Shown here: piece by piece, positions 9,001 to 27,406 of the stretch
Layout: every line of letters begins with the position of its first letter
Position numbering within the stretch: the stretch's first letter is position 1
Source of the DNA: Candidatus Ornithoclostridium excrementipullorum
GTDB taxonomy: Bacteria > Bacillota > Clostridia > Christensenellales > UBA3700
Reading direction: 5' to 3'
Length of the DNA: 64,000 nt
Assembly (NCBI GenBank): GCA_018716085.1
Contig: DVKK01000057.1
Span: 14,570 to 78,569 of the forward strand
Made by a program: the position numbers and the translations under genes
The notes under the pieces: generated by a model
Seen by the model: only the letters and a program-made list of their open reading frames with translations
Database searches by the model: none
Told to the model about the DNA's origin: nothing

Positions 9001-12000
9001 GATAGCTTTGAGCGGCTCGGTCACGTTCGGCGAAAACGGCGGGATCGCCTTCGTCGACGCGGACGGCGACGAATATTTGCCCGTCAACGTAGTGCTCGCC
9101 GACGACGGAACGCTCGGAGGATACGTTTTCGAGCTGCGCGACGTCGTGTTTACGCACAATAACTATATCTGGGATTCCGGAGTCGTGACCGATATCCCGT
9201 CGTCCTATTCCGTCGAAGACGGCGCAAAGGGCGACCGCAGTCTGTATATCATAGAACCGAAAACCATTATCGTTTCCGCGGATTCGTTCTCGGATAAGAC
9301 TTTCGACGGGGCGTTCTCGCTCCGCGTGAACGACAGCGGCATTCAGGGCGAATACGTTTCGATCGGCGACTTGGGAGGACTCAACGCCTCGCTGGGCGGC
9401 GTTTACGGCCCCGCCTCGATAATCCCGTACGTGTCGGGAGTGACGTTCGATAAGACCGCGCTCAATCCCGATACCACCGCCGACAACTACAGAGTGGTCT
9501 GCGCCGACGGCGCGCAGGCGCTGGAACTGACGGGCTTCACGGTGAGCACGGGCAGCGTGTTCACGGCGGAGAGATCGGCGGGAGGATACAGGCTCGGATT
9601 CGGAAAACTCGCGGGATTCGATTTCCTGTTCGCGGCGAAGGGCATGACCGCCGAAAACAGAGCGGCGATCACCGCGGGACTTGCGGGAACGCTCGCGACG
9701 GGCGAGCCGTGGAGCGAAACGACATACGACGCGGCGGGCGCGTTTGCCGCGCTCAACGAAGCTCTCGCCTCGCTGTTCGATATACGGCTCAACAATTCCG
9801 CCGACGCTCTCGCGCTCGACGGCGAATACTTCTTCAACGACTTCCTGTGGTCCGAACAGACGGACGGTATGGGCAGAAAGTATTATGCGCTTACGTTCTC
9901 GTTCACGGGCGCGGCGGGCTACGACCGCGACTTCGCGACCGACAGATACTCTTTCACGCTCAAAGGCAAGACCCCCGACGTCGAGGGCGCGCAATATATA
10001 GCGTCGACCAATACTTCGCTGACGTCGTCCGAGCTGGGCGAAGGACAGCTTTCCGCCGAGAACTCGCAGACGGGCGTTGCTATCTCCGACGCCGAGGGAC
10101 TGCTCGATCTGCTGAGGTCGGGAGGCGAAGGCCATCTCACCGCAGATATCTACGGATTCGATCCCGCGGGAGAGGAGATATCCTTTGCGGGCACTCTGTA
10201 CGGCAACGGACATACCGTACAGCTTGCGCCGAGCGAGCTTGCGGGAGTTTCCGCAGGAGGGTATAAGGTATACGGCATGCTTGCCGCGGTCAACTCGGGC
10301 ACGATCCGCGATCTGACCGTAAAGGTGCTTGCAGACGGCGAGATGATCCTCGACGAGGGGTCGGTATTCGGCGCGGTCGGCTACAATTCGGGCACGATCG
10401 AAAACGTCGGGGTGGAAATAGTCGCGCCTCTCAGAGTATCGGGCGCCGCGTACGTCGGCGGTATCGTCGGATACAACGCCGCGGGAGGCACGATCTCTTC
10501 GAGCGGCGTCACCGTCTCAGCAGACGTATACCTGACGGACGGCGAAGGGGCGGTCTCCGGCGTGTTCGGAGGTATTGCGGGACTTGCGGCAGGCACATTG
10601 GAGCGCGTTTCGGTAAGAACGACCGAGGATTTGTATCTTGCGGGCGCAGGCGGCGCCGACGGCAGAACGCCCGTGACGATAACCGTTTCCGCCGCGGGAG
10701 GCGGCGGGGTGATCGGCTCCGGTTCGGGCGCAGTCGCAGACGGCGTTATCGCCGCGACGACGCGGCTCGACGGCGTCAACGGCGTTCTCGGTTCGGGCAG
10801 CGCTGCGGTGAGCGGCGTGTACGCCTACTCCGCCGAAGGGCTTGGTATAGACGGAGAGATCCTCGATTCGACCGAACTTACGATCCTTGCCCCGTACACC
10901 GACGGCTTCATTTCGTACAGGTTCACGGACAGATCGGATTACGAGACCGACGGAGCGAAGCACAACGAGATAGGTTCTTCCGAAGAGAGGAATATGTCGC
11001 TGTACAGGATATACGACGACTCCGACGGAGAGAAGATAGCAATAGAGGCGATAGCGCCGGCGGGCAGATTTGTCTGGGAGGGCTACGGACTCAGCTACCG
11101 CAGCGAACTTATCGACGGCAACGTGGGCACTTCCGCCAACAGGATAGTGGCGGTGTTCGCCGTCGGCGCGTCCGTTGCGCAGCAGTACGAGGGCACGGAC
11201 GCGTTCACGGGAGGAGTAGACGCGTATACGGCGGCGTTCGGCATCATAGGTTCGACCGTAGTCGCGGGTACCGCGTCCGGTGTCAAAGAAACGGTCTACA
11301 ACGGAGAGATACAGACATACACCGTTACGCTCACGGTCACCGAACCCGACGGTTCGACTCGTGAAGAGCAGCTCAGCGTGCAGGGCACGGACGCGGGATA
11401 TTATTCCAGGTCGTCGGTCGAAGGCGTCATCAGCGGCGACAGCGACACTTACGGAGACGTCACGTTCGATATCGACAACCGTACGGCGGTGACGGTCGTC
11501 GGAGGGGAGGGGACGGTGTCCGACGGCATAGCGTTGATAATATACCCGAAGGCGGCGGACGATCGTTCGGCAGTCAAATATTACGATACGACCGACGCGG
11601 CGACGCTCACGCTTACGGGCGCGGGAGATACGGATACGGTGTCCGGAGGCAGATATCTCGACGCGCAGGGCGCTTACGCTCACGACGTCGACACCGCGGT
11701 CGCGGCGGCGTTCGTCAATGCCGATACGGCGGTGAGAAACGTGATAGCCGACGCGGAAGGCCGCTTCTATACGCTCGTTGCCTCGGTAGAGGGCGACGGG
11801 CAGCAGACTCGCGTCGTATATAAACTGCAACCCGCGGAGATAGAAACCGAGGACGGCACGGCGCCGTTCGGACTCGATACCGATCTCACCGCTTACAGCG
11901 CCGCGCAGATCATGAGAGCTTATGCGAAACTCACCGACTGGGCAGAACTCGAGAACGCCGCGGCTCAGCCCGGATCCGATATCGATATCGGCGCATACGT

Positions 12001-13570
12001 TCCCGCGCGGGTGTTTGCCGTGACGGGCGCCGCCGACGAGAGCGGTTCCGCGGTGTTCTCCGAAACGGTCGGTACCCTTTACTTCGCGCCCACTGCGGCG
12101 GGCGGCAACCTGATCGCGGTCGATACGCTTTGGATAGCCGATATAACCACGTTGTCGGCGGAGGATTTCGACTGGACCGTTGCCGCGGGATACAAGGTGA
12201 CGGGAGAGAAAGTCGGGATACTGCCGATAGATCTCGACATATCCGCCGGACTCAAAGGTACGGATCAGTCTTACAATCACGCGCTTATCGCTCCTACGCC
12301 CGACGGGACCGTGGAGATAGGCATGACTTTCGAAACGGCGCAGAGCGTATACGGATTGGAGAGAGAGCTTTACGACGCGCTTATCGCCGAGGCGGCGGAC
12401 ATTTCCGTTCCCGCCGCGGGCGACCTGTTCGGGGCGCTGATCGAATCCGGCGACATAATATCCACCGCGGACGGCTATTTCGCAGCGGTAAAAGAGTATA
12501 AGAAGCTAACCGCGAGCGCGCAGACCGTCGACGCCGACGGCAACTTCCTCGTGAACGCGGGAGGACAGCTCACGCTCCGTTATTTCGAGGCGAGTATCGG
12601 CGCGGACGGCAGTACGACGTATCTGATATCCGATATCGACGATTGGCGGGCTCTGCAAAGCAATGAGAACGGCATCGCCGATTACAATACGCTCGACTAT
12701 CTTCTGACCGCGGATATCGATTTCGGGGGCACGGGCGCGATGCTGGCATGGACGAGCGCGGAAGGAGATATCGTCCACTTCGAAGGATCTCTCGACGGAG
12801 ACCGACACGTGCTGTCGGGCATCTTCGAGTTCAATGCGGGCGAGCGGGCGAGGTCGGCGCTCATAGAGAGCAATTACGGTATGGTAAAGGATCTTTCGGT
12901 AGTCAATTCCGTATTTGACGCTTACGGTACCGATTCCGCCGCCGCGGGCATAGCCGCGGACAATCACGGCACGATCGAAAACTGCACCTTCGAGGGCACC
13001 CTCGCGAGCGGCAATTCTCAGGCGACTTCCGCCGTGCTGGGCGGCATAGCCGCCAACAATTACGGAGTGATAATCGGAGGCGTATCCGTCGGCAGAGCGC
13101 ACGCCGAGACTTCCGCGGACGGCGCGGTATCCGCGGCGGGTGTGGCGGTCGGAGCGGCGGCAGGGGCGTCGGTAAGCGACAGCGTATCCGTACAGGTCCT
13201 CAACGTATACGGCGGCTCGAATGCGGAAGCGGGCGGCGCGGTCGTAGGAGAGGGCTCTTCGGACGGCAATGCGTTCCTTGCGGGACAGACGTTCATAAAC
13301 GGTACGGAGACCGCCGAGGCGGATACGTCGGGCGACGCCTCTTTGACATGGGACGGCGACGCGCGGTGCAAGGCGGTCATAGAGAACTATGTGTTCGACG
13401 AAACGCTGATATCCGTTTCTTCCGAGGGCAAACTCGTCACCGACAGCTTCCGCAAACTCATCGCGGCGATCCGTCTGTTCGGTTGGGTGGGCGCCGACGG
13501 AGTGACGGACACTTCCGTCGCGGCGTGGGGAAAATACGCCGCATGGCTGGCGGCGCATACGCTCCGATGA
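2..13570 (+). CDS. Giant surface/secreted repeat protein, 5'-truncated by the window edge (GLUG-like modules plus MBG-type YDGT repeats)
   Basis: The frame is open from nt 2 (no stop upstream of the track Met at 29) to TGA at 13568-13570, giving >4,513 aa. It has many GG[LI][IV]G / GGIAG strings and three GxGHTV/GDRHV module openers (nt ~1341, ~10196, ~12790). At least 13 'K-x-Y-D-G-T' repeats lie between nt ~3770 and ~11590. Composition is D/T/G/V/A-rich, unlike the Arg-rich antisense frames. Confidence 0.85.
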   Translation, partial: TGVSVTGSGMINRISVGGLIGMVSNEDNDTSIDGLAVEMKAYGFIDIDVSHNFAALGGIVGDLRGVMSGARFETEYLSRILINGTLSGGTAALGGLAGVINGATVGTSVVKGIGYMYNGVTTDSASASASLDLYSGGAVGLGANYAVDTSTAAATYRRINPSVIDSVYVDFEGYLRALAGTKVGIVTGRLFDGVTADAVAVNADAVRNVVWKVNYYGDVPWASSEYVDNVSTAFNERDNLAVFGYAPQTVDGYDAARAQMGMRLWVTNNRYSGETNNTISATWQSSGNLRITVDNITSAEDYEAFTAYFNGNAQSGEDGITRISTYHSLGSGDPVAATATVNVADRLASFASAGGMASAHGVYVIRFVFDEVLIYNQAELMTFISGGKNSVSKTTAGATNVSAYMFGLATTDARYSELANADYGVLAGDISVNYGATAVTMPAGKTLFGDGHTVTLTASGTVTAYQMWSNRSDVDDEDASIGILQEGETVRSYISGGENESDGSHFLNADLNAVTETDSRVGAGAGGLLMGRNLGTISSINFVLQNSVTISNSGYGALIAGGIVTAVNAGTIENCSLTLNEGVEFTVAREACSDEGRTNELGNDSEGQINTVVAAGGYAGMMFSDGGNSGLIRNSTLDIKTEAVIATSNEFSTFYWLGRRSSVISYAGGLVGWMLEGSEIYNVILSGEGDIRAWATLDTSSGIDWNEEFAFGIGGIIAGLNSPHNMFNPIAAQWAPDNHGYVNGVICNWNGNVEYSAMYTDGTFTDSGTIYYDVDRHNYSIGGQMIGVSESDALRNVYFMYGVENYSTYHRDNWYYGTTAAARATNAEFEGKYEYLVSQSLKLLELHPEWDAIYAPVATGGENVNPQLVPVALREDGEVVQGELFTFENYNNYTSADPEADGSIFGGVQHTVDNTWGFQVYATTLGSDGRPTSYTDILRTYYHKITEPSIYTSGDTKDEDRVGARTSGKMTTVEGDGVNAPTVYRIEDWSYQYTPNNIYLYEIPFGSNEEVELDMNDPDTVVSLSFETDEIDSDIRLEFELYTDEAQAEFIWSITEEWDYADGSSTSDTTNYYETVNSLEAAHRNNRFDRTMRRDNDGTDLTFIYTIGSAVAIAPDTNRYTGVVETDDEGDITELVYYDGQPQLYNAQALVPPTIYYVNYVTGEQIREATVNQSMFSYWRIPDGGSLDSAVSLGSSAPYDVGEYFIRLSFGGAGDDNLKVNLTDRTVMFGVDTDHYDFYTAIMPRGLTSTQISEIRKTYDGTADSTDLTNFTVSGLVGGDSLRILGTFEQADVGDDLDFTVDTSGVAYVRTVSGGKVTVNTIAVITSVTGDLTNYAYVRTALADPSQGVEVNLGRYYSPGAVARISGSGIIVPYEINRGGISFRLTNGDGELIDFTTNTNVEYRNGYFYDTSSFEGSVVPVGGTSLYMDENGAITEGLFADGDSLQFSFTFGGAESVTDKGDYSVGVSMTSANGNYVLTGSGSIGMLHILAIILDNTAYFNYVMDDIERVYDGTDGLPDFGGTMIVTDKNGHTLSAGSDYTIVLGYSSVEAPVDVGQYELRVNIVSFDGKGNYELDDDIDYRFIPENGGRAAYLFVTPREVVFDSVIKQFDNTGEADPSYTVYNYADGAGPLEAGTEFSGSFPMQSGTAGYSTVGSGKQFAFDTETLTFEDINGARRSYNTLEVAGDASNRNYCVESVTSDIGGITPIEVELTSATKIYDNRTAIDYTAEGTQVIIVRTDNGAQVDIEPSASFDSPRTGSSKTVSFDTVATSVYGETYATLVNSAYSDVTATSGWNYSGNYCVAEDRFMSVGQIVQYTIEWEHIGSIFEVIQILDGREGDSIGFSRSGSASGTLVYMNGYTVEGVLRDGTVGGWPDEDPVQELIEFAIETDAAVLGYAGDYTIVLSIVSPDGLSEPDYVWGDFNNKNSDGDIEFTFEVERQTINASASASASPESSVWSGTASSLSFTASVTDNNGVTLDLSAAEGALVNGTLGGSYENGSVLPIGDYSSTVEVGLVGDDALNYVYGGADPVAEFSVLPAQLSVYSVEKEYDDTTSLTTAGNEAQITASVPDGEVDFDAQYVSALPQTSGGVRFAAASYVIGGTRYYVFVGSDGETSNYAAQNVSSANDDSVVINVGVIEKYVITQSELRAYIYGWMRGQTEKQRTEITDGDTHFEYRDNGVYSADEVEFELTLRYGLTATISSRPAVNDGAGSVLDFAVTITGVGADVSEGAGRVLGVGEYDIEISLDNACFALAEGVVSAGGFTVDKQSVSGGSEGEGGYFGGNVLITADAFSYAYGESGFNTPAVTDPKVVLTVTVYDTYSGARYVYSKEVVGQLLYGDAQTDTLTGEVLVGEYKVWATQFADSLENYIIDTQTVLPVFVTGTVLPDGADVGDDGVPVGAEHSAIYAVIPAEAAISSVTKIYDGTVSFDGATIATLPAGLESAVQGRFVSPDATHGSDGTETGEGSRNAYISVYDLTLQGVTYRMLAQSGTAANYCVIGEYSAGEVLVTGVASIYKLSITDLGMLSLTAQPFGREYDGTSSMVVLPEMTLTVTVGENVISVPFTPDAAALVLSLDGEEVAEAVRVGAYGVAVLPDGLGNFEIPEGLGNVPVNGGAAAYYIEPKAVTLDELAKTYDGTPDVTDQTVIVLTGLLDGETASFAIAFSDAAVGLNKSVTVAVTAFEGADGTVFDRIVSTDGAGSDYCIVGGVSDGTQAVLQGSGYTISPAALEATGSAIKTYDGTADITSAASQVFSGFVSGETVQPDWNYDGKDSGTRDVLVRVDTSVVYNVGEAAYYALYTAGEEGWIPGNYGIEFTGDNIVEEEVQIVGEDGETTTVVYYYALFSGAGRIDPYAISGFTQVLVDGRDISVPREYDRTSSYSLSDVRPSFLVDGVTVTAAYSAGRMSAVTPFGDTLQFNASFSPSSVRDAGSYVLSISLVANANYTMTAYTGGFVIEPKELDGLFVVVPDIMKEYDGTPDLPQTDTSLWEVYGVDGGVTIALSGSVTFGENGGIAFVDADGDEYLPVNVVLADDGTLGGYVFELRDVVFTHNNYIWDSGVVTDIPSSYSVEDGAKGDRSLYIIEPKTIIVSADSFSDKTFDGAFSLRVNDSGIQGEYVSIGDLGGLNASLGGVYGPASIIPYVSGVTFDKTALNPDTTADNYRVVCADGAQALELTGFTVSTGSVFTAERSAGGYRLGFGKLAGFDFLFAAKGMTAENRAAITAGLAGTLATGEPWSETTYDAAGAFAALNEALASLFDIRLNNSADALALDGEYFFNDFLWSEQTDGMGRKYYALTFSFTGAAGYDRDFATDRYSFTLKGKTPDVEGAQYIASTNTSLTSSELGEGQLSAENSQTGVAISDAEGLLDLLRSGGEGHLTADIYGFDPAGEEISFAGTLYGNGHTVQLAPSELAGVSAGGYKVYGMLAAVNSGTIRDLTVKVLADGEMILDEGSVFGAVGYNSGTIENVGVEIVAPLRVSGAAYVGGIVGYNAAGGTISSSGVTVSADVYLTDGEGAVSGVFGGIAGLAAGTLERVSVRTTEDLYLAGAGGADGRTPVTITVSAAGGGGVIGSGSGAVADGVIAATTRLDGVNGVLGSGSAAVSGVYAYSAEGLGIDGEILDSTELTILAPYTDGFISYRFTDRSDYETDGAKHNEIGSSEERNMSLYRIYDDSDGEKIAIEAIAPAGRFVWEGYGLSYRSELIDGNVGTSANRIVAVFAVGASVAQQYEGTDAFTGGVDAYTAAFGIIGSTVVAGTASGVKETVYNGEIQTYTVTLTVTEPDGSTREEQLSVQGTDAGYYSRSSVEGVISGDSDTYGDVTFDIDNRTAVTVVGGEGTVSDGIALIIYPKAADDRSAVKYYDTTDAATLTLTGAGDTDTVSGGRYLDAQGAYAHDVDTAVAAAFVNADTAVRNVIADAEGRFYTLVASVEGDGQQTRVVYKLQPAEIETEDGTAPFGLDTDLTAYSAAQIMRAYAKLTDWAELENAAAQPGSDIDIGAYVPARVFAVTGAADESGSAVFSETVGTLYFAPTAAGGNLIAVDTLWIADITTLSAEDFDWTVAAGYKVTGEKVGILPIDLDISAGLKGTDQSYNHALIAPTPDGTVEIGMTFETAQSVYGLERELYDALIAEAADISVPAAGDLFGALIESGDIISTADGYFAAVKEYKKLTASAQTVDADGNFLVNAGGQLTLRYFEASIGADGSTTYLISDIDDWRALQSNENGIADYNTLDYLLTADIDFGGTGAMLAWTSAEGDIVHFEGSLDGDRHVLSGIFEFNAGERARSALIESNYGMVKDLSVVNSVFDAYGTDSAAAGIAADNHGTIENCTFEGTLASGNSQATSAVLGGIAANNYGVIIGGVSVGRAHAETSADGAVSAAGVAVGAAAGASVSDSVSVQVLNVYGGSNAEAGGAVVGEGSSDGNAFLAGQTFINGTETAEADTSGDASLTWDGDARCKAVIENYVFDETLISVSSEGKLVTDSFRKLIAAIRLFGWVGADGVTDTSVAAWGKYAAWLAAHTLR

Positions 13571-18769: not shown

Positions 18770-19410
18770 TTTTGCTCCGGTCCGCGTGCGGCGCAGGTCT
18801 TGTTCGCGCACCGCGCGCATTTATCGCTTTTCGTAAACGGAAAAGGTTTGCCTCCGTCCCTGACTCCGATCAGGGCGGTGACCGATTTGCGGGGGACGAG
18901 AGATCCTCCCGAATCTACGCATACTCCTATCGCGGTATCGGTGCGGAGCAGCGCGCATATGGTCCTTTGCGACGAGAGCGGGAAGTCTCCGTAGCCGCAG
19001 GAAAACCTTGCGGTAAAGGCTTTGCCGGTCTCGGATTGAAGGCGGGCGCACACCTCGTCGCAATAGCTTTCGATCGCGCACGACGCCGCGGTATCCAACA
19101 GGAGCCCGTCTCTTGCCGAAACGGCGAAAGTCCTGTCGAGTTCGCGCTCTATAGCCGCTCCCAGAGTCGCCGCGAACAAATATACTTCGCGGCATCCCGC
19201 AAGGTGTCTTGCGATATCTCTGCCTTGCGGAGCAAAGCCGCTTCCTTCGAGAACTCCGTCGGAAAAGGCGAACCTGCGCACCGTGTATTTGGGACGGGCG
19301 CATTCCAGACATTTTGCAGACATTCTGTCCATCGCCTCGTCGGTGGCGGGATCGATCTGCTGACCGCGCCATCCGAGATAGCGCAGCATCTCGCGTCTGT
19401 CTACGTTCAT
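18766..19410 (-). CDS. Methionine synthase activation (AdoMet-binding) domain protein, encoded separately
   Basis: 214 aa beginning MNVDRREMLRYLGW. The ATG overlaps the metF stop (ATGA) and its stop overlaps the metH start. The sequence resembles the stand-alone MetH activation-domain proteins of Clostridia and Thermotoga. Confidence 0.7.
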   Translation of the reverse strand: MNVDRREMLRYLGWRGQQIDPATDEAMDRMSAKCLECARPKYTVRRFAFSDGVLEGSGFAPQGRDIARHLAGCREVYLFAATLGAAIERELDRTFAVSARDGLLLDTAASCAIESYCDEVCARLQSETGKAFTARFSCGYGDFPLSSQRTICALLRTDTAIGVCVDSGGSLVPRKSVTALIGVRDGGKPFPFTKSDKCARCANKTCAARGPEQK

Positions 19411-20282
19411 CTGTTGACGCTGGCGAGCATGGACGACACGTTTTCGGTTATCCTGCGCGCGACGGTCGAGTTGTTCATCACGTAAAGGTGTATGCCTCTC
19501 ACTCCCGCCGAGATAAGATCGACTATCTGATCGGTGGCGTAGGCTATACCTGCTTCCATCAGCGAATCGGGATCGTCGTAGAAGCGGGAGATCATGCGCG
19601 ATATCTTGTTGGGGATCTTGGCTCCCGTAAGTCCGACTATCCTGTCCACGGTGCTTTTTTTGACAAGCGGCATTATGCCCGCCTGCACGGGAACGGTTAT
19701 TCCCGCGAGCGCGAGCCGTTCGGAAAAGCGGAAAAAGTCGTCGTTGTCGTAAAACAGCTGGGAGTTGAGATGGGTCACGCCCGCTTCCACTTTGCGTTTG
19801 AGGTTGTTGATATCTTCGACCGGATCCGCGCTTTCGGGATGTCCTTCGGGATAACACGCTCCCGCGATGTCGAAAGCATAGCCTTTGCCGCGGATATACC
19901 GCACCAGTTCGTCGGCGTGGCTGAAATCGGGCGAGGGCGCCGCTCCCGCGATCCTGTCGCCGCGCAGAGCGAGAACGTTGTCTATTCCTGCGGCGGACAG
20001 CTTCTCCAACGACGCGGAGATATCCTCCTTGGTGGAGTTTATGCAGGTGAGATGTGCGAGCGGCTCCACTCCGAAGTCGTCGCGGAGCATCTGCGCTATC
20101 TCTATCGTGCGCGAGTTGCCGGACCCTCCCGCGCTGCAAGTGACCGACACGTAGTCGGGACGCAGGTCGGCGAGCGCGCCTACCGTGCGTTTTATTCCGT
20201 CGATATCGGCGGTGGGCTTGGGCGGGAATATCTCGAAAGACCAGAGGGTCTTTTTGGTCCCGAACATATCGGAAATATACAT
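19407..20282 (-). CDS. metF: 5,10-methylenetetrahydrofolate reductase
   Basis: MYISDMFGTKKTLWSFEIFPPK...VSVTCSAGGS...AHLTC...LALRGD. I chose the start at the ATG preceded by GGAGG (20280-20282) rather than the track Met at 20312. Confidence 0.9.
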   Translation of the reverse strand: MYISDMFGTKKTLWSFEIFPPKPTADIDGIKRTVGALADLRPDYVSVTCSAGGSGNSRTIEIAQMLRDDFGVEPLAHLTCINSTKEDISASLEKLSAAGIDNVLALRGDRIAGAAPSPDFSHADELVRYIRGKGYAFDIAGACYPEGHPESADPVEDINNLKRKVEAGVTHLNSQLFYDNDDFFRFSERLALAGITVPVQAGIMPLVKKSTVDRIVGLTGAKIPNKISRMISRFYDDPDSLMEAGIAYATDQIVDLISAGVRGIHLYVMNNSTVARRITENVSSMLASVNR

Positions 20283-20317
20283 AACGTCCTCCGTCCGCGT
20301 TTCCGCGGTCAAAAAAA

Positions 20318-20691: not shown

Positions 20692-20766
20692 AAATGGTGG
20701 GTTAATAAAATTTAAGTGACCATGGGGGCATAGTCCCCCCGAGGAAAAAAATTATGGAGGCAGATT

Positions 20767-23700
20767 ATGAAACGTAAAGTATCCGTCATTCTGGCATTGG
20801 CGCTCGTACTTTGCATGATCTGTTCCATGTTTGCGTTTGTCGCGTGCGACGAAGAATGCACGGAGCACGTGGACGCGGACGGGGACGGGATATGCGATAA
20901 CTGCGGCGAAACGATGCCCGAAGAGGAGTGTACGCAGCACGTCGACGCGGACGGCGACGGTAAGTGCGACAACTGCGGAACGGCTATGCCCGACGGCGGC
21001 GACGAGTGCACGGAGCACGTCGATTCGGACGGCGACGGTAAGTGCGACAACTGCGGCATATGCATGACCCACAAAGACGCAGACAGCGACGGCAAGTGCG
21101 ACAACTGCGGCGAGTGTATATCTCACAGGGACGCGAACGACGACGGCAAGTGCGACAACTGCGGCGAGAGCGTGATAATGAGTTATTATCCCGATTACGC
21201 GATGAACCGCATAATAGACAATCTCAGCGCGCAGTATTCCGAGCTTGCGGGATCGTACGTGTTCGGGGTCAGCTTCGAGGCGGCGATAGACGCGAAGAAG
21301 GGAGCGGCGCAGGCAACGCAATACGTATTGCGCGGGAAGGCGAGCATAGACCTTCGCGCGAACGAAGCGGACAGAGAAGACAGCGCGATATGGGTCGAGC
21401 TGGTAGAGAAGACGGCGGACGGCGAAGAAGTGGTGCTCGGACTCGCGTTGGAGAGCACGGACGGAGCGCCGTATCTGTATGCGAACGCGCTTAACGGCGG
21501 ATACAAGAAGATAAACGCGATCTCCATCTACGATCTTGCCGTGCTGACGGGCGCGGCGGAGCCGGGAAGCGGCGCGTTGGCGACGGCGGGAACGGACGAT
21601 ATGATCACGTCGGTGATCTATTCGCTGCTGTTCGGAGACAGCGTCGAGTACAACGTGCTGGACAACGATTACGAGTTTACGCTGAGCGTAGCGAATATGA
21701 TGACGGAGCTGTCCGACGTATTGCAGCTTGTGGATATCGGATCGTTGATAGGCATAAGCGAGAGCGACATAATCGCGATAGTGGAAACGGTATTCGGCGA
21801 TCTTACATACGAGAGCGGAGAAGAGACCGTAGAGGTAGAGACGCTGTCCGATCTGCTTGCGTGGGTGAGCGCGAACTACGGCGGATACGGCGGTATCGTG
21901 ACCGTGGACTTTGCGGCTGACAACACGTACGAGGGCGCGACTGCCGAACTGGTAGACGGAGAAGACGGAAACGCGAACGTGACATTGAACGAAGTAAACG
22001 TAGGCGTGGATACGGTCGCGGTCATGGACGAGTTCCCGCTGAGCGAGGCGCAGAGATCCGAGATGGAAGCGATAAATCTGCTCAACTTCAAACTCGAGGG
22101 AAGAGCGGAAGGTCGTGACGCCGCAGGCACTGCGCACAATTGGTATAATATCGTGGTCGAGGCGGATATCGATCCGTTCGTGTTCCTCGATTTCATCAAC
22201 GGTACGGATATCGACACGGTAAAGAACGTGGTCAAGAATCTCGGATATCTGAGAGTTACGGTAGACGAGGTCGACGCCGAAGGCGCGCACGTTTCCAACA
22301 TATTGACGCTCTTTGCCGATCTTGACGGAAGCGACAATCCCATTTTGGTCAATCTCAACGCCTACGATATAATGAGCGGCATAATAAAAGCCAACCTCGG
22401 CGGCGTATACGAAGTCGACGAATTTATCGACATGATCGCCGATCTTGCCGGCGGTACCGGTGAAGGCGGCGACGGCTCCGGCGAAGGAAGCGGAAGTGAA
22501 GGTGAAGGCGGCGACGGCTCCGGCGAAGAAGGCGGCGGTATCGATATCGTTGCGCTCATCGGCGATATATTCTCCGCAATAGACACCGAGAACATGACCG
22601 AGAGCGGCGTGACGATAGACGTCAACAAGCTCGGCGACGTAATTTGCGAGGCTCTCAACATCAACATGGAAGTCATGGGAATGAATATCGCCGATATCAT
22701 CAAGAGCGATCTGCTCAACGGCGAACAGAGCCCCTTCCTGAACATAAAACTGTCGACTCCTCAGTACGGAGCCTGCGAAAGGACTTTCGGCTACAAAGAC
22801 GTCGAGGCGGGATATAAGAACGGGCTCAACGGTTTCTTTGCCGAAGCTGAGTTCGCGTCGCTTCCCGATATGGTGGAAGAGGGCGCCGAGGATACGATCG
22901 GAGAGTCCGTTATAGATGCGTCCGGCAACGTGTCCATCAAAGGTAAAGACTTCAACGGCAACGATCTCAGCGCGAGCGCCTATGTCCTCGAAGAGAGATA
23001 TACGACCGTGGGCGATACGATCGAAGTCGAATACGTGGTATCCGTTATCGCGGACCTGCCCGGAAACGGTATCTTGGGCTCCGCGCTCGGCGACAGCGTC
23101 AATCTGAAGGAACTCCCGCTCAGCGGCGTGTTCACCATCAAAGGCAGCGTTCAGGTCAGACCCTATGACGAAGAGGCTCAGATCGACGTGAAGGTCAAGG
23201 TCAGTTACGGAGAAGCTCCCGCGATAGTGGATGAGGTCAACACCACGTACGGACTCACTTCCGACGCCGGCGTCTATGCGACCGTTGCGACCAGAAGCAG
23301 CAACAGCATCGTCGTTACGATCACTTCCGGCGGCAACGCTAAAGAATATACCTTCAATAAGAATTCGATGAAGGTATATGACGCCGAAGGCAACGACGTG
23401 ACCGCAGAGGTCTACGACGCCGCTGCCGATAAGATCACCGTCGCGGGTAAATATACGCTCGGTTTCGAGGTCGGAAGATATAAGATCGAAGTCGCCACCG
23501 CGTCCATCGATACGTTTGAACTGCGCAGAGCCGACGGAGGCGAAGCTCAGACCGAGATCGATATCGACGGAGGATTGCTCTACAACGATTATAAGATAAT
23601 CGAGACCACCGCCGAAGGCGAGACCAAGGAACTGCCCATCGTCGCAAAGGCGATAGACGGAGGTCTTGCCGAAGAAGACTTCACCGATTTCGTCATGACA

Positions 23701-24534
23701 ACGAAGGATCTGCAGGACGTCGGTAAGAAGGTCAATCTCGAGATAACGGTAACGTCCACCAATCACGGTGACGTCAAGATCACGACTCCCGAGGTCAACG
23801 TCGTCAGCGATAAGTGGGTCAGCGTCAACAACCTCCTGCTCGGACAGAGCGTCGACAACGTTGCGGTTATCCATGAAGGACCGGTCGATTATTACACCAG
23901 ATACGACGCAGAGAACGGATTCTCGCTTGTAGACGCCGAAGGCAACGCCTACGCGACCCAGACCTATCAGATACGTATGTACTGGGAAGATGCCGCGGGC
24001 AATGCGGATCTCACGTTCAACGAAGCGGGACAGGTGACCAATATTCCCGTAGGCACCAGTGCTTCGCTCGGTAAATACGACGCGGTGTTCAGGATAGAAT
24101 TCGCCGACGGCTTCTACTATCAGCTGACGCTCGACGTGAGCGGTCTTTATGCCGGTACAAGCGCGAGAAAACTCGTTGCGGGAGAGCAGTTCACGCTCGA
24201 AACGATCATCGGCGGCACTACCGGATCCGCGGTTTATCCCAATACGCTCGATAAGTGGTACTGGTACAACGCGGACGGAAGCAGAGCGGATCTCGAGTTC
24301 AAGTTTGTCGCGGGCAACGAATTCGCCATAGTAGTTGCGGGTACGGATACCGTAGTGGCGACGTTCACGCTCAACATCCTTGACGCGGAGAACGAATCCG
24401 TAGAACTCGTAAACGGCGCGATAGCCGCAGCGGGCTCCTACACGATGACGGTTGATGTCGAATTCCTCGGACAGACGTACACCCTGCAGAGGAACGCTTC
24501 TTCCGGATATCAGGTCACCGTATCTGAGGCCTGA
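20767..24534 (+). CDS. Large putative lipoprotein with N-terminal Cys/His/Asp tandem repeats; otherwise no recognisable domain
   Basis: 1,255 aa with GGAGG RBS. Signal peptide MKRKVSVILALALVLCMICSMFAFVAC (Cys codon at 20845-20847). Acidic, Arg-poor composition. The longer antisense ORF is Arg-rich and implausible. Confidence 0.85.
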   Translation: MKRKVSVILALALVLCMICSMFAFVACDEECTEHVDADGDGICDNCGETMPEEECTQHVDADGDGKCDNCGTAMPDGGDECTEHVDSDGDGKCDNCGICMTHKDADSDGKCDNCGECISHRDANDDGKCDNCGESVIMSYYPDYAMNRIIDNLSAQYSELAGSYVFGVSFEAAIDAKKGAAQATQYVLRGKASIDLRANEADREDSAIWVELVEKTADGEEVVLGLALESTDGAPYLYANALNGGYKKINAISIYDLAVLTGAAEPGSGALATAGTDDMITSVIYSLLFGDSVEYNVLDNDYEFTLSVANMMTELSDVLQLVDIGSLIGISESDIIAIVETVFGDLTYESGEETVEVETLSDLLAWVSANYGGYGGIVTVDFAADNTYEGATAELVDGEDGNANVTLNEVNVGVDTVAVMDEFPLSEAQRSEMEAINLLNFKLEGRAEGRDAAGTAHNWYNIVVEADIDPFVFLDFINGTDIDTVKNVVKNLGYLRVTVDEVDAEGAHVSNILTLFADLDGSDNPILVNLNAYDIMSGIIKANLGGVYEVDEFIDMIADLAGGTGEGGDGSGEGSGSEGEGGDGSGEEGGGIDIVALIGDIFSAIDTENMTESGVTIDVNKLGDVICEALNINMEVMGMNIADIIKSDLLNGEQSPFLNIKLSTPQYGACERTFGYKDVEAGYKNGLNGFFAEAEFASLPDMVEEGAEDTIGESVIDASGNVSIKGKDFNGNDLSASAYVLEERYTTVGDTIEVEYVVSVIADLPGNGILGSALGDSVNLKELPLSGVFTIKGSVQVRPYDEEAQIDVKVKVSYGEAPAIVDEVNTTYGLTSDAGVYATVATRSSNSIVVTITSGGNAKEYTFNKNSMKVYDAEGNDVTAEVYDAAADKITVAGKYTLGFEVGRYKIEVATASIDTFELRRADGGEAQTEIDIDGGLLYNDYKIIETTAEGETKELPIVAKAIDGGLAEEDFTDFVMTTKDLQDVGKKVNLEITVTSTNHGDVKITTPEVNVVSDKWVSVNNLLLGQSVDNVAVIHEGPVDYYTRYDAENGFSLVDAEGNAYATQTYQIRMYWEDAAGNADLTFNEAGQVTNIPVGTSASLGKYDAVFRIEFADGFYYQLTLDVSGLYAGTSARKLVAGEQFTLETIIGGTTGSAVYPNTLDKWYWYNADGSRADLEFKFVAGNEFAIVVAGTDTVVATFTLNILDAENESVELVNGAIAAAGSYTMTVDVEFLGQTYTLQRNASSGYQVTVSEA
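20857..21168 (+). repeat. Five tandem coding repeats of C-x2-H-x-D-x-D-x-D-G-x-C-D-N-C-G
   Basis: The units are CTEHVDADGDGICDNCG, CTQHVDADGDGKCDNCG, CTEHVDSDGDGKCDNCG, CMTHKDADSDGKCDNCG and CISHRDANDDGKCDNCG. Confidence 0.9.
22459..22528 (+). repeat. 28-nt perfect direct repeat (period 42 nt) encoding a GEGGDGSGE linker
   Basis: GGTGAAGGCGGCGACGGCTCCGGCGAAG occurs at 22459-22486 and again at 22501-22528. Confidence 0.85.
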
Positions 24535-24804
24535 TAAAGCTGCAAAGGAACAACGCAACAGAATACCCGAAAAGGTATATCTTTCCACCTCCTCCACACC
24601 CCGTGCCGTAAGGCGCGGGGGAGTGTGGGGAGAAGACAACGAAACCGACGCCCGAGACATCTTTGCGTTTCTATGGACAGACGGGCGCAGGTATAGCGGA
24701 GTTATCCGCACTCCCCGGCGGGCGCTCGCACCGCGGGCTCCCGCCGGCTCCTTTCGACTATAACGTCGCCATGCGGCGACTTCCCTAACCATACCTTATC
24801 ATAC

Positions 24805-25008: not shown

Positions 25009-25959
25009 TCAGCGTTTTTGCCCGAAAACCAGCCTGAGATCGTCGCCGACGATCTCGCGCATGAGAGAGTAATTTTTGTTGACCATACGCGACACGGTGC
25101 GTTCGCCGTAACGGCGCATCAGCTCTTCCAGCGACAGATTGGTGGTCACCATCGTACGTTTGCCGTGGTTGATACGCGATTCGATTATGTTGTACAGGTA
25201 TTCGCAGGTCACGTTTTTCAGTATGTTCTCGGCGCCGAGATCGTCGATGACGAGGAAGTCGCTTTCGAGAAGGGGCGCCATGTATTTGCCTCTCGCTTCG
25301 AGCGGAGAGGTGTGATATTTCAGCAAAAGCGCATTCATGTCGAACGCCGACGTGCAGAATACGGGTACCCCCTGCGCCAGCAGTTCGTTGGCGACGGCGT
25401 ATGCGAGAGAAGATTTGCCTACGCCAGATTGCCCGGTAAGCAGTATGAACCTGATGCGGCTGTCGTAGAATTTGTCGCAGAATTTCTTCATCGCCGAATA
25501 CAGCTTGCCGAGGTCGTCTTTCTGCGCGCACCCGGAAGACGCGCTTTTGTCGTCCGCAAAGCCGAACTGCGGGATATGTTCCGCGCCGCACGAGGCTTTG
25601 AGAAGCTCCATATATTCCCTCTGCGCGCAGGAACACAGTTTTCCGTGCGCGAACCCCCTGTCTTCGCAGATCGGGCAGCGGCGGTGTGCCGCTACGTCCA
25701 GACCGTACTTTTTCAGTACGTCGGCGTAAGCGGCTTCGGCTTTTTCGAGATCTGTTTTCGCTTTTTCGGCGTTTTCGGTCTTTGCGGCGGCGGCTCTCGC
25801 ACAGGCTATCGCGGCAGAGTTCCTGTCCGCTTCCGCCCGTGCGAATTCGGGTATCGCGCGGGCTTTGTCCAGCCGTCTTTCGGCGTCCGCGTCTTCCGCC
25901 CGACGAACGGCGTCGCGCGACGCGCGTATCTGTGAGTATATCCTCTCGCGTTCGGTCAT
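25009..25959 (-). CDS. dnaI: DnaI/DnaC-type helicase loader (AAA+ ATPase)
   Basis: Walker A LTGQSGVGKSSLA, Walker B FLVIDDLG, and an N-terminal Cys cluster CPICEDRG...CSC. It lies directly downstream of a DnaD-domain gene. Confidence 0.8.
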   Translation of the reverse strand: MTERERIYSQIRASRDAVRRAEDADAERRLDKARAIPEFARAEADRNSAAIACARAAAAKTENAEKAKTDLEKAEAAYADVLKKYGLDVAAHRRCPICEDRGFAHGKLCSCAQREYMELLKASCGAEHIPQFGFADDKSASSGCAQKDDLGKLYSAMKKFCDKFYDSRIRFILLTGQSGVGKSSLAYAVANELLAQGVPVFCTSAFDMNALLLKYHTSPLEARGKYMAPLLESDFLVIDDLGAENILKNVTCEYLYNIIESRINHGKRTMVTTNLSLEELMRRYGERTVSRMVNKNYSLMREIVGDDLRLVFGQKR

Positions 25960-25960
25960 C

Positions 25961-27406
25961 TCATACCTCTATGTCGTCGAAGTCGTGTATATCGCCGAAG
26001 AACGAGGAAAGCTCCTCCTTCGTATACTTGCGTTCGAGATCGCCCTGTCGTCTGTCGTCGTTTTTGCGTTTTCCGACCTCGGCGCGGAATATCTTTTCCG
26101 CGGCTTCGACCGAAAAAGCTTTTGCGTCGCGGCAGGCGGTGAGAAGTTTCGTCACCGCGCCGAAAGCCATGGGCCTGCCCGCGCATTCCCGCGCGGCGGC
26201 AACTATGACGTCGTCGTCGAAGCCCCAATCTTTCCACAGTCCGTAGGCGTCGCGGTCGGACGCGGTGACGCTGCGGGAGCTGCCCGTCGCGGCGATCGCT
26301 TCCTTTACGCGCTTGTCGCGTTCGACGAGAGAGGCGAGGTATTCGTTGATGCTCTTGCAGTCGAGGCAGCCGTTTTTGCGGAAGCGTTCCGCCGCGGCGT
26401 TCATTCCTCCGAGAGTACGTATGCCGTTGGTCAGACAGTATTCGGCGATCAGTCTGAGCGCGTCGCCGTCGAAGCCCTGGTTCAGCCATACGTTTACGTA
26501 ATGGGATATGACGGTGTCGAGATTTTCGTAACGGACGCCTATCGTCGAGGTGACGTCTTTCGCGAGATCGTACATCTCCTGTTTGTGCGCGGCGTACTCT
26601 TCGATCTCCTTCGGATCTATGCGGTTGTTGACGAAGTATTCGTCGAGCAGTGCGTTCAGCCTTTCCATGCCTCCGCGCTTCTTGCACTGTTTGGCGGCGA
26701 GCAGTATCGCCTCGTCCGAAAAGCCCCAGCTCTTGGTCCACTTGACGTACAGCTGCCTGTCGTCCAGATCGATCGCCGACTTTTTGCCCAAGGCTTTGGC
26801 GATCCGACGCAGACTTTCTGTCGAGGAATCTTCCAGCTCGATATGTTTTTCCGCGTCCTCCACCGTGCGTATGCCGAGCGCATACCACGCTTTGGCGACC
26901 GCGAGCACGTAGTTGGATCGGATGTCTTCTCCTTTCATCCTCACGCAGTATCCCGCGACGAGCAGAAGCACTTCGTAGGGGAGGCGCGTTTCTTCAAGGA
27001 ATTCGTAATATTTGGTGTATTCTCCCGCAAGCAGCATTCGCGATCCGAAGATGCTTTGCAGCTGCGCGTTGAAATCGGTGAATTTGCCGGGTTTATAGAG
27101 CTTGATCTTCTGCCCGGGACGGTTGTATCGGACTTCGAGAGGGGACTGCGACACTATCGTGACAAGACCTTCGTCGCGCCAGTACGCAAAGGCGTCCGCC
27201 AGCGCGCTCTCGGTCATTCCGAGCACGTTGCAGACGCTCTCGACGGTGTTGTCGGCAAGTATCGGAGAGGAGCAAAGATAAAGCCCGTAAAGATAGACTT
27301 TGAGCTTGTCCCCGTCGGCGTCGGGCAGGTTTTCGCGGATAAATCTGTTGTCGATAACGGTCGAGCCTTCGTTCGCCGCGTCGACCGCCATTCTGCAAAG
27401 CGCCAT
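25961..27406 (-). CDS. DnaD-domain replication initiation/membrane attachment protein (Firmicute DnaB-like, not the helicase)
   Basis: 481 aa. The N-terminus FIRENLPDADGDKLKVYLYGLYL and repeated DnaD-like C-terminal segments (WG..DE.I..A) fit this family. Its stop is 1 nt from the dnaI-like start. Confidence 0.7.
   Translation of the reverse strand: MALCRMAVDAANEGSTVIDNRFIRENLPDADGDKLKVYLYGLYLCSSPILADNTVESVCNVLGMTESALADAFAYWRDEGLVTIVSQSPLEVRYNRPGQKIKLYKPGKFTDFNAQLQSIFGSRMLLAGEYTKYYEFLEETRLPYEVLLLVAGYCVRMKGEDIRSNYVLAVAKAWYALGIRTVEDAEKHIELEDSSTESLRRIAKALGKKSAIDLDDRQLYVKWTKSWGFSDEAILLAAKQCKKRGGMERLNALLDEYFVNNRIDPKEIEEYAAHKQEMYDLAKDVTSTIGVRYENLDTVISHYVNVWLNQGFDGDALRLIAEYCLTNGIRTLGGMNAAAERFRKNGCLDCKSINEYLASLVERDKRVKEAIAATGSSRSVTASDRDAYGLWKDWGFDDDVIVAAARECAGRPMAFGAVTKLLTACRDAKAFSVEAAEKIFRAEVGKRKNDDRRQGDLERKYTKEELSSFFGDIHDFDDIEV

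Follow-up and report, generated by a model that had tools for sequence, protein, structure and literature searches.

Tandem Cys/His/Asp units in a gut clostridial lipoprotein: a candidate metal-stiffened spacer module

Described modules closest to the repeat unit

The linear motif Dx[DN]xDG binds calcium in a near-identical manner in at least twelve fold contexts, none of which is the context described here; cysteine is absent from that survey, and zinc occurs solely in a cited title (Rigden and Galperin; PMC3123361). We analyzed a 64-kb stretch of DNA (the window) that encodes a 1,255-aa lipoprotein with five tandem Cys/His/Asp units. The unit shares D1, [DN]3, D5, G6 and an acidic position 9 with the Dx[DN]xDG class, of which the EF-hand loop is one context, but it lacks flanking helices, carries Gly instead of Glu at position 12 and has Cys/His pairs at the loop ends. 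It does not qualify as an EF-hand (PF00036), as its model contains no helix, position 12 is Gly in 57% of the units, and EF-hand_1 aligned with the loop in register only at E 0.71 (10 bits, below the cut-off of 25.4). Since this Gly replaces the bidentate Glu of EF-hands, calcium affinity may be low.

Thrombospondin type-3 repeats (TSP_3, PF02412) are likewise extracellular, tandem, short and acidic, with DxDxDG loops and Cys, including the string C-D-N-C, and the structural role in both is likely calcium dependent. The unit has three Cys and one His rather than paired Cys, has no counterpart of the second acidic cluster to which TSP3 owes its paired calcium sites, and is far shorter, closing within 18 aa. 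The earlier note on this DNA had likened the loop to the thrombospondin type-3 pattern. This comparison survives as an analogy only: the acidic loop is present, but by counting the Cys do not appear to be paired and a His is present, and the TSP_3 profile gave no match at E <= 10 with either the 148-aa N-terminus or the whole protein, and membership was rejected. As a control, true TSP_3 proteins from our hit list scored E 1e-5 to 3e-13 in the same library.

In Excalibur (PF05901, DxDxDGxxCE), also bacterial and extracellular, a conserved Cys likewise comes after the DxDxDG loop, but this Cys occupies register 9 instead of 8, and the unit has three further ligands and is repeated in tandem. 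DUF6802 (PF20615) contains tandem repeats of V-H-x-D-x-D-G-D-G, whose His has the same placement, two residues ahead of the first Asp, and two of its members (P0109 and P0124) were retrieved by phmmer with the array; its repeats lack any Cys, are longer and have beta-strand spacers. Neither Excalibur nor dockerin (PF00404) was listed at E <= 10, and the DUF6802 profile did not match the window protein. The best Pfam resemblance was to ADK_lid (PF05191), the zinc lid of Gram-positive-type adenylate kinases, which matched four stretches at E 2.7e-4 with 21.2 bits, under the curated cut-off of 26.6. Both have two x2-spaced ligand pairs, G-x-C-D-x-C-G forms the second knuckle of the lid, and the octapeptide DGKCDNCG is identical in Rhodobacteraceae adenylate kinase lids. 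In contrast to the lid, the unit has C-x2-H as its first knuckle, a calcium loop as the eight residues between the knuckles, and an extracellular, tandem setting. Zinc-ribbon families appeared in the Pfam scan at E 0.03-5 throughout.

The earlier note had held that assignment to a characterised family would overturn its reading. The repeat unit found no match above threshold in Pfam-A (2025 copy, without the PF27309 model), NCBIfam 20.0 or PDB, and a PHROG scan of the whole protein and of the N-terminus returned nothing above threshold. PDB sequence searches with the protein and with a repeat profile yielded just linker-like or C2H2-finger periodicity matches and no thrombospondin. The repeat may already be covered by a newer Pfam entry, PF27309, which is precomputed on three carriers (P0006, P0018 and P0045), and the sole region common to them is the signal peptide plus repeats. 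No description of this unit turned up in literature searches that covered DxDxDG, zinc ribbon with lipoprotein, surface proteins of Christensenellaceae, and PF27309.

An AlphaFold2 (AF2) model of the repeats was of medium confidence (mean pLDDT 69.6, pTM 0.34), with pLDDT of about 76-80 in the units and lower values in the spacers. It contained a beta-bridge hairpin around every C-D-N-C-G, almost no other regular secondary structure and no helix. The fold search with this model produced no match at E < 0.8, and the non-significant matches were almost all small zinc modules, with no thrombospondin among them. Several other classes were dismissed: c-type haem attachment (the unit has C-x2-H instead of C-x2-C-H), a CDGSH/mitoNEET-type 2Fe-2S site (different ligand order and no Pfam hit), a ferredoxin-like C-x2-C-x2-C (it arises only where units abut and is gone when a spacer intervenes), a RiPP precursor (the protein is a 1,255-aa lipoprotein) and dockerin (no profile match and no helix).

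The lipoprotein and its five-unit array

The anatomy of the gene was read directly from the DNA (Table 1). The N-terminus of the protein, MKRKVSVILALALVLCMICSMFAFVAC, has a basic K/R n-region (MKRK...), a hydrophobic stretch at aa 5-26 and then F-V-A-C27, the make-up of a signal peptidase II substrate, and the same signal peptide is present in the orthologs P0001-P0006 and L083. By these features, the product is a predicted lipid-anchored surface lipoprotein modified at Cys27. The gene is flanked by metF and a dnaC/istB-like gene, both on the minus strand (neighbors identified by Pfam), and appears monocistronic; this gene order is kept in L083. An antisense ORF of 1,346 aa (20752..24792) was rejected as a codon-bias artefact.

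Table 1. Coordinates of the lipoprotein gene and its features in the window
Feature	Residues	Nucleotides	Strand	Basis or remark
Ribosome-binding site GGAGG		20756..20760	+	6 nt upstream of ATG, read from sequence
Whole gene, 1,255-aa lipoprotein		20767..24534	+	ORF list; includes stop codon
Predicted lipoprotein signal peptide and lipid-modified Cys27	1-26 and Cys27	20767..20847	+	Lipobox A-F-V-A-C in sequence
Unit 1, CTEHVDADGDGICDNCG	31-47	20857..20907	+	Pattern match
Unit 2, CTQHVDADGDGKCDNCG	55-71	20929..20979	+	Pattern match
Unit 3, CTEHVDSDGDGKCDNCG	81-97	21007..21057	+	Pattern match
Unit 4, CMTHKDADSDGKCDNCG	99-115	21061..21111	+	Abuts unit 3, 18-aa period
Unit 5, CISHRDANDDGKCDNCG	117-133	21115..21165	+	Abuts unit 4
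Body	134-1255	21166..24531	+	Acidic, 2 Cys in 1,122 aa, mixed beta/alpha content
Internal low-complexity linker, GGTGEGGDGSGEGSGSEGEGGDGSGEEGGG	562-591	22450..22539	+	Alignment; Tandem Repeats Finder, 21-nt repeat

The earlier note had described five tandem Cys/His/Asp units near the N-terminus of this lipoprotein, and all five fit C-x2-H-x-D-x-[DN]-x-D-G-x-C-D-N-C-G exactly, over aa 31-133 (nt 20857-21165). The range it gave, 20767-21180, covers the signal peptide and the array but is slightly generous at the 3' end. It was also right that each unit pairs an acidic Dx[DN]xDG loop with a Cys/His tetrad: C-x2-H plus C-D-x-C-G, which makes two ligand pairs of x2 spacing, the second followed by Gly, is present in every window unit. 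A six-frame search of the window with the strict peptide pattern returned these five copies and no other. Successive units are spaced by periods of 24, 26, 18 and 18 aa. Residues 28-133 hold 15 Cys and 5 His per 106 residues, compared with 2 Cys and 4 His in the other 1,122. Tandem Repeats Finder detected a 72-nt array (score 222) and a 54-nt array (score 182), and these tandem DNA repeats are a sign of recent amplification.

We compared the array with that of a syntenic Christensenellaceae ortholog (L083; 60% identity), which has seven N-terminal units versus five in the window protein. All Cys (15/15) and all His (5/5) were kept, with 4 synonymous codon changes, and Asp was kept at 21 of 24 positions, whereas only 39 of the 79 other residues were. 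Loss of the Cys, His and Asp positions in orthologs would have counted against the earlier reading, which this result leaves standing. The note had also proposed that repeat number be compared among relatives, and the orthologs contain either five or seven N-terminal units.

Ligand conservation and the proposed metal sites

Conservation and ligand counts were observed directly in the collected units, with positions numbered from the first Asp of the loop. Among 399 distinct units, D1 was kept in 96%, [DN]3 in 95%, [DN]5 in 99% (D 80%, N 19%), G6 in 75% and D9 in 96%; the Dx[DN]xDG linear motif is thus present, and all five window units conform to it. Across about 965 distinct units, position -2 was His in 85% and Cys in 9%. 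The upstream Cys stood at -5 in 57% and at -4 in 19%, with His at -4 or -5 in a further 5%, and about 17% of the His-type units had no Cys or His within six residues upstream. These results fit two metal sites, a Dx[DN]xDG calcium loop with Asp9 and a four-ligand Cys3His clamp.

The sum of Cys and His was exactly four per unit in 290 of 440 arrays (66%) and deviated in 34%. An extra Cys at loop position 4 was found beside units without an upstream Cys (26/189 vs 2/589), and one variant (P0148) carries His(-2), His6, Cys8 and Cys11. A ligand at -2 was associated both with Cys11 (odds ratio 6.7) and with a ligand upstream (odds ratio 6.3); the p-values are inflated because the statistics are drawn from related sequences. 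By counting, the hallmarks of a zinc knuckle are present, namely four ligands kept per site, interchange of Cys and His, and compensation by Cys4 or His6. Moreover, Firmicutes reportedly tend to exclude Cys from exported proteins, so a Cys-dense exported module points to metal ligation. Two observations pull the other way. A His stands at -2, ahead of DxDGDG, in the DUF6802 repeats as well, although these have no Cys, so it could be a feature of the loop rather than a zinc ligand. Cys8, in turn, is retained in small secreted proteins lacking the other ligands, so it could represent the hydrophobic position 8 of an EF-type loop.

The earlier note had left the tetrad as either a zinc knuckle or disulfides, and the family-wide statistics favor the former and speak against the latter. 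A thrombospondin type-3-like calcium repeat, in which the Asp loops bind calcium, the Cys form disulfides inside a unit or from one unit to the next and the His plays no part in metal binding, would account for the shared DxDxDG loop and C-D-N-C string, for the true TSP_3 proteins among the weaker phmmer hits (P0199, P0213 and P0233) and for the His of the Cys-free DUF6802 repeats. However, with three Cys per unit the Cys count was even in 226 and odd in 214 of the 440 arrays, and such random parity argues against disulfides; the 15 Cys of the window array would leave at least one unpaired. Swaps of His to Cys and Cys to His hold the count at four, the carriers are strict gut and rumen anaerobes, and the profile, PDB sequence and fold searches described above detected no thrombospondin. 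We consider this alternative unlikely.

From the conserved positions we infer both the identity of the metals and their stoichiometry. In the proposed model, each unit would be a self-contained mini-domain of 17-18 residues held by two metal ions. Cys(-5), His(-2), Cys8 and Cys11 would create a tetrahedral Cys3His site, with zinc as its most likely metal, in which the C-x2-H and C-D-x-C-G knuckles pinch both ends of the eight-residue loop, and D1-x-[DN]3-x-D5-G6 together with Asp9 would constitute the calcium loop. The metal clamps would do the job of the disulfides in thrombospondin type-3, LDL-A or EGF-type calcium repeats. That this is an autonomous, previously undescribed two-metal fold of about 18 residues, in which a Cys3His zinc clamp closes a Dx[DN]xDG loop and strings of which make metal-dependent rigid stalks or connectors, is a tentative proposal that we hold with some doubt.

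Carriers, linker interchange and the spacer role

The distribution of the unit was determined by sequence searches. A phmmer search retrieved 806 clusters (50% identity), with true units in about three quarters of the best hits. Carriers were almost all gut or rumen Clostridia among the matches listed, the taxon counts being a sample from a DNA pattern scan. Of 210 unit-bearing proteins, 148 (~70%) had a lipobox, scored by the PROSITE-like pattern [LVI..][ASTVI..][GAS]-C within about 35 residues, and in 106 of these 148 the first unit lay no more than 30 aa from the lipid-modified Cys. Copy number among the 210 carriers ranged from 1 to 18 per protein. The cargo is unrelated from carrier to carrier and includes peptidoglycan hydrolases, a starch-binding module, pectinesterase, peroxiredoxin-type domains, solute-binding proteins and leucine-rich repeats. 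Single units were found between domains, units also occur at C-termini, far from the anchor, and in one protein (P0010) they are located between Flg_new, Big_3 and CBM26 domains. The shortest period is 18 aa, never under 17-18, and the spacers are rich in D/E/G/P/A. The earlier note had called such an array unusual; although the module is indeed uncharacterised, it is widespread among surface proteins of gut and rumen Clostridia, with hundreds of clusters, and typically lies in just this membrane-proximal position. Judged from these searches, the unit is an uncharacterised building block common in the surface proteins of these bacteria.

Alignment of the window protein with four orthologs (P0002-P0005) placed four to eight Cys/His/Asp units exactly where the window protein has its Gly/Glu/Ser linker. 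The repeat array is thus shown by alignment to be interchangeable with a low-complexity acidic Gly/Glu/Ser linker. This interchange is in keeping with an acidic, largely disordered linker whose Cys/His pattern was inherited from repeat amplification and has no metal role, as are the medium confidence and near lack of regular secondary structure of the model and the recently amplified DNA repeats. Against it, 10 positions stay conserved throughout about 965 distinct units, drawn from hundreds of unrelated proteins, and also between orthologs of 60% identity that differ at half of the remaining positions, and the period does not drop below 17-18 aa. We regard a linker of this kind as very improbable.

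The position of the units and their interchange with the linker bear on two further readings. A metal-handling device, in which the arrays capture, buffer or store zinc and/or calcium at the surface, for example against metal withholding by the host, could draw on the exposure of the array and on how densely its potential sites are packed (as many as 5 Zn and 5 Ca over 106 residues; arrays elsewhere reach 18 units). Closed Cys3His sites, however, usually bind zinc too tightly for handing it on. In addition, the units ride on unrelated cargo and occur as single copies between domains, a plain acidic linker can take the place of the array, and no metal transporter adjoins the gene, its neighbors being metF and replication genes. 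Such a role is quite unlikely. The beads might alternatively serve as a binding module that attaches to cell-wall polymers or zips proteins or cells together via metals shared in trans, with parallels in the calcium-dependent dockerins and the zinc-dependent G5-E repeats of staphylococcal Aap/SasG. The array lies within the wall zone right after the lipid anchor, some three-ligand units would leave a site open for a partner, and the acidic calcium loops could bridge to anionic polymers. Yet the four-ligand sets are complete in most arrays, units also sit between domains and at C-termini distant from the anchor, there is neither a dockerin profile match nor a helix, and interchange with the Gly/Glu/Ser linker argues against a specific partner. 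We give binding a slim chance.

The reading that we favor, and which we hold to have about an even chance of being correct, is that the units are metal-stiffened spacer beads, mini-domains of 17-18 residues with a zinc clamp and a calcium loop that build the stalk of this lipoprotein and serve elsewhere as a generic module. Following Cys27, the beads, abutting or joined by short Pro/Glu/Asp/Gly spacers, would form a compact, probably stiff stalk of variable copy number that keeps the 1,100-aa acidic body off the membrane. The same module would be reused as an N-terminal tether and inter-domain connector in hundreds of unrelated surface proteins of gut Clostridia. Position and interchangeability are what make a spacer role seem the likely function.

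Gut Clostridia like the Christensenellaceae, Oscillospiraceae and Lachnospiraceae occur in abundance, are associated with health and are for the most part uncultured, and their surface proteins are poorly annotated. Hundreds of their lipoproteins and multidomain surface enzymes carry this short, recognisable module, and spotting the beads would aid annotation and domain parsing, as they show where the real functional domains start and end. If the two-metal reading is true, the beads would offer strict anaerobes a way to build stiff extracellular spacers without disulfides, would provide a very small metal-dependent scaffold for protein engineering and would tie surface display to the zinc and calcium supply of the gut. 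Such a fold would be among the smallest bimetallic domains known and an anaerobe's disulfide-free counterpart of the thrombospondin type-3, LDL-A or EGF calcium modules.

Finally, we investigated the body, in which the earlier note had found nothing to assign over about 1,100 aa, and this description stands. The body had no match in Pfam, NCBIfam, PHROG or PDB, and its AF2 model was poor (mean pLDDT 43.7); porin-like fold matches (TM 0.06, rmsd 28 A) were discarded as meaningless. Only six homologs were detected among 5.8 billion proteins, and a body-only search returned the same six relatives. By homology search, the 1,100-aa body is a lineage-restricted orphan.

The lipoprotein gene and its array

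A pattern scan, Tandem Repeats Finder and Cys/His counts confirmed the earlier note's five tandem Cys/His/Asp units behind the lipobox Cys. All five match C-x2-H-x-D-x-[DN]-x-D-G-x-C-D-N-C-G, which we number from the first loop Asp (D1), with the His at -2 and the upstream Cys at -5. Only three residues (DEE) separate the lipobox Cys from unit 1; short Pro/Glu/Asp/Gly spacers lie between units 1-3, and units 3-5 stand back to back with a period of 18 aa. Tandem Repeats Finder detected 72-nt and 54-nt DNA repeats under the array. The array contains 15 Cys and 5 His in 106 residues, versus 2 and 4, respectively, in the 1,122-residue body that follows, and the strict peptide pattern did not recur outside it in six frames of the whole window. 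Firmicutes reportedly tend to avoid Cys in exported proteins, so a Cys-dense exported module is hard to explain except by metal ligation.

Features of the lipoprotein gene and its neighbors
Feature	Position	Strand	Basis or remark
Methylenetetrahydrofolate reductase (metF)	19407..20312	-	neighbor
Lipoprotein ORF, 1,255 aa	20767..24534	+	ORF list
GGAGG	6 nt 5' of the ATG of the lipoprotein ORF	+	sequence
Lipoprotein signal, lipobox Cys27	N-terminus MKRKVSVILALALVLCMICSMFAFVAC	+	sequence; textbook signal
Units 1-5	aa 31-47, 55-71, 81-97, 99-115, 117-133	+	5/5 match the pattern
Gly/Glu/Ser/Asp low-complexity linker GGTGEGGDGSGEGSGSEGEGGDGSGEEGGG	22450..22539 (aa 562-591)	+	degenerate 21-nt repeat; internal-array site of P0002-P0005
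Antisense ORF, 1,346 aa, spanning the whole lipoprotein gene	20752..24792	-	ORF list
IstB/DnaC-like ATPase	25009..25959	-	neighbor
DnaB_2 (DnaD-like) replication protein	25961..27406	-	neighbor

The gene appears monocistronic, between oppositely oriented neighbors. The antisense ORF was rejected as a gene; its product is Arg/Val-rich nonsense, and it is stop-free through codon bias. The body of the lipoprotein (aa 134-1255) is acidic (188 Asp+Glu versus 60 Lys+Arg) and nearly without Cys. Nothing had been assignable in these ~1,100 aa, and this still held with database and structure tools: no family matched in Pfam-A, NCBIfam or PHROGs, six homologues in total were found among 5.8 billion proteins, and the AF2 model was poor (mean pLDDT 43.7), its fold matches being judged meaningless. 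Elsewhere in the window, a 4,513-aa ORF (29..13570, + strand) has a Gly/Ala/Val/Thr/Ser-rich product with just 11 Cys. It gave no Pfam-A match at E <= 1e-5 and has the look of a giant surface protein, of no assigned family.

Anatomy of the unit

We collected 399 distinct units with a regular expression that required C8 and C11. H(-2) was present in 88%, D1 in 96%, [DN]3 in 95%, [DN]5 in 99%, G6 in 75%, K7 in 58%, D9 in 96% and G12 in 57%. Judged by sequence, the acidic part corresponds exactly to the Dx[DN]xDG linear motif, whose mode of calcium binding is near-identical across twelve or more structural contexts (PMC3123361).

The Cys/His part behaves, in residue statistics, like a four-ligand site. 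Of about 965 units, 85% had His at position -2 and 9% had Cys there. For the upstream ligand, the figures were 57% Cys at -5, 19% Cys at -4 and 5% His at -4/-5. Exactly four Cys+His per unit were found in 290 of 440 distinct arrays; one third of arrays depart from this number, and 17% of His-type units contain no upstream ligand within six residues. Units lacking the upstream Cys lie preferentially beside units that carry an additional Cys at position 4 of the loop (26/189 versus 2/589), and ligands at -2 tend to occur together with Cys11 and likewise with the upstream ligand (odds ratios 6-7); these statistics come from related sequences and their p-values overstate independence, with a consistent direction throughout. 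Between the zinc knuckle and the disulfides proposed earlier, the four-ligand counts and His/Cys swaps favor the former, and of the 440 arrays 226 had an even and 214 an odd number of Cys, indicating no preference for Cys pairing. We consider it improbable that the units are disulfide-stabilised calcium repeats. Adjacent units were never under 17-18 residues apart, with 18 the commonest period, which makes C(-5) to G12 the indivisible element.

The data best support reading each unit as a mini-domain that contains two metal sites, where we infer both metal binding and stoichiometry. A Cys3His clamp, most likely binding zinc, would shut the Dx[DN]xDG calcium loop at its ends, and Asp9 would also contribute to this loop. 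Counting against a clamp, small proteins that lack the other ligands also have Cys8, and Cys-free DUF6802 proteins have His(-2).

Comparison with known families and folds

No characterised domain family matched the lipoprotein above threshold in Pfam-A (2025), NCBIfam 20.0, PHROGs or PDB sequences. The nearest Pfam resemblance of the N-terminus was the adenylate kinase zinc-binding lid (E 2.7e-4; 21.2 bits versus a cut-off of 26.6; four stretches), followed by assorted zinc-ribbon families and then EF-hand_1 (E 0.71), all below threshold. The profile scan listed no TSP_3, Excalibur or dockerin even at E <= 10, and the thrombospondin type-3 likeness raised earlier did not hold up as membership. 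Searched against PDB sequences, the protein and the array profile hit nothing but Gly-rich linkers and C2H2 zinc-finger arrays, with periodicity as the basis of the match; thrombospondin and adenylate kinase were both absent. Because one defining feature each of TSP_3, EF-hand, Excalibur and dockerin was tested and found missing, the unit is not a member of these families; what it has in common with the zinc-knuckle pattern and the Dx[DN]xDG motif class is limited to sequence features. In its proposed function the unit resembles thrombospondin type-3, EGF-Ca and LDL-A modules, with a metal clamp where those have disulfides.

AF2 modeling of the array (aa 26-148, 22-row alignment) gave a mean pLDDT of 69.6 (about 76-80 inside units, lower in spacers) and a pTM of 0.34, with no helix and an isolated beta-bridge around every C-D-N-C-G, the knuckle hairpin. 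Foldseek found no significant match in the PDB (best E 0.84). The weak list comprised almost entirely small zinc modules (ribosomal/RNA-polymerase zinc ribbons, RanBP2 fingers, LIM domains, the NrdD ribbon), without thrombospondin; this zinc-module flavor of the model is a hint only.

A precomputed Pfam accession, PF27309.1, which is not in our Pfam-A 2025 copy, is attached to three unit-bearing proteins (P0006, P0018, P0045). Since these share only signal peptide and repeats, it may be the Pfam entry for the unit, which may thus already be catalogued in a newer release. We found no literature on the unit or PF27309.

Spread, variants and interchange with linkers

The repeat is real, strongly conserved, widely reused and not previously characterised. 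Its residue pattern is best captured by a Dx[DN]xDG calcium loop in a new structural context, with a Cys3His knuckle pair as its clamp. When 5.8 billion proteins were searched from word seeds, 103 matches came back, of which the six homologues were whole-protein relatives and the others shared the repeat alone. Exhaustive phmmer with the 115-aa array against 1.84 billion representatives gave 806 clusters at E <= 1e-3 (169 at E <= 1e-10); among the best 150 of the 806, 99 of 136 newly returned proteins contained the unit in its strict form, H-x-D-x-[DN]-x-[DN]-x-x-C-[DN]-x-C, and other matches included genuine TSP_3 proteins, DUF6802 repeats and small secreted proteins with the motif [FY]-V-D-A-D-G-D-G-V-C-D-N.

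The membrane-proximal array, earlier thought unusual, is thus widespread. A lipobox was present in 148 of 210 unit-bearing proteins (1 to 18 copies), with the first unit <=30 residues from the lipid-modified Cys in 106 of the 148. The downstream domains are mutually unrelated (NlpC/P60 with DUF11, Flg_new, leucine-rich repeats, Big_3 with pectinesterase, AhpC/redoxin, SBP_bac_5, CBM26, 5'-nucleotidase), and in P0010 units lie between recognised Flg_new, Big_3 and CBM26 domains. Such arrays would serve as probably stiff, copy-number-variable tethers and inter-domain connectors in surface proteins of strict anaerobes. We give little credence to metal capture or buffering, and it is similarly doubtful that the arrays bind the wall or zip together through metal.

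Scanning one genome per GTDB species for DNA encoding DGKCDNCG gave at least 119 loci. Among the matches listed, 72 of 119 contained a His-type unit, 70 of these 72 in genomes labelled as gut or rumen Clostridia (Christensenellaceae, Oscillospiraceae/Ruminococcaceae, Lachnospiraceae, Eubacteriales, Clostridia MAGs); the octapeptide also occurred in adenylate kinase lids, in a small secreted Bacteroidales family with Phe replacing His and, by eye, in a class II tRNA-synthetase-like context and at the C-termini of ~336-aa, radical-SAM-like proteins. The unit-bearing lipoprotein of one bin labelled Coriobacteriaceae (L001, CAVEOF010000002.1) is almost identical to its counterpart in a Eubacteriales MAG (L015), and the bin's label may be a binning error.

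Variants differ in their ligands. P0148 (4,197 aa) contains back-to-back 19-aa units, S-[ED]-H-A-D-x-D-N-D-H-N-C-D-[IV]-C-G-E-K-I, at aa 3850-3980, with two His (-2 and 6) and two Cys (8 and 11) and no upstream Cys. The DUF6802 proteins P0109 (aa 150-520) and P0124 carry V-H-x-D-x-D-G-D-G repeats, sharing His(-2) but lacking Cys. Two uncharacterised secreted families (L023, L024, L035, L037, L085, L087, L091, L098, L104, L107, L109, L112; P0159, P0173, P0183, P0190) have an aromatic residue in place of the His and often Cys8 alone of the Cys ligands: ~140-170-aa Bacteroidales/Draconibacterium proteins with one F-V-D-K-N-G-D-G-K-C-D-N-C-G each, and small Gly/Arg-rich proteins with 3-5 copies of [FY]-V-D-A-D-G-D-G-V-C-D-N. 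The four P-numbered members matched no significant Pfam family, with sub-threshold DUF6802 for P0173 only.

An uncultured Christensenellaceae MAG (L083) encodes a 1,300-aa orthologue (60% identity, same signal peptide), flanked in the same order by metF (78% identity) and a dnaC/istB-like gene (65% identity); most likely, then, the window derives from a gut bacterium related to this one. The earlier note had looked to relatives for repeat number and Cys/His/Asp conservation: the orthologue has seven N-terminal units versus five, and aligned array columns retained 15/15 Cys, 5/5 His (four of these Cys/His positions through synonymous codon changes) and 21/24 Asp, versus only 39/79 other residues. 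That the array is a plain disordered linker therefore seems quite unlikely to us. Four homologues contain a second, internal array (about eight units each in P0002, P0003 and P0005, four in P0004) bounded by conserved flanks LGGVY..D and GGIDIV, where P0001, like the window protein, has a low-complexity stretch, suggesting that unit array and flexible acidic linker are evolutionarily interchangeable. In P0227, an 85-aa fragment listed with P0106, the window protein's units 1 and 3 are joined without unit 2 and a frameshift follows, reflecting either a lower unit number in that strain or collapse of the repeat during short-read assembly.
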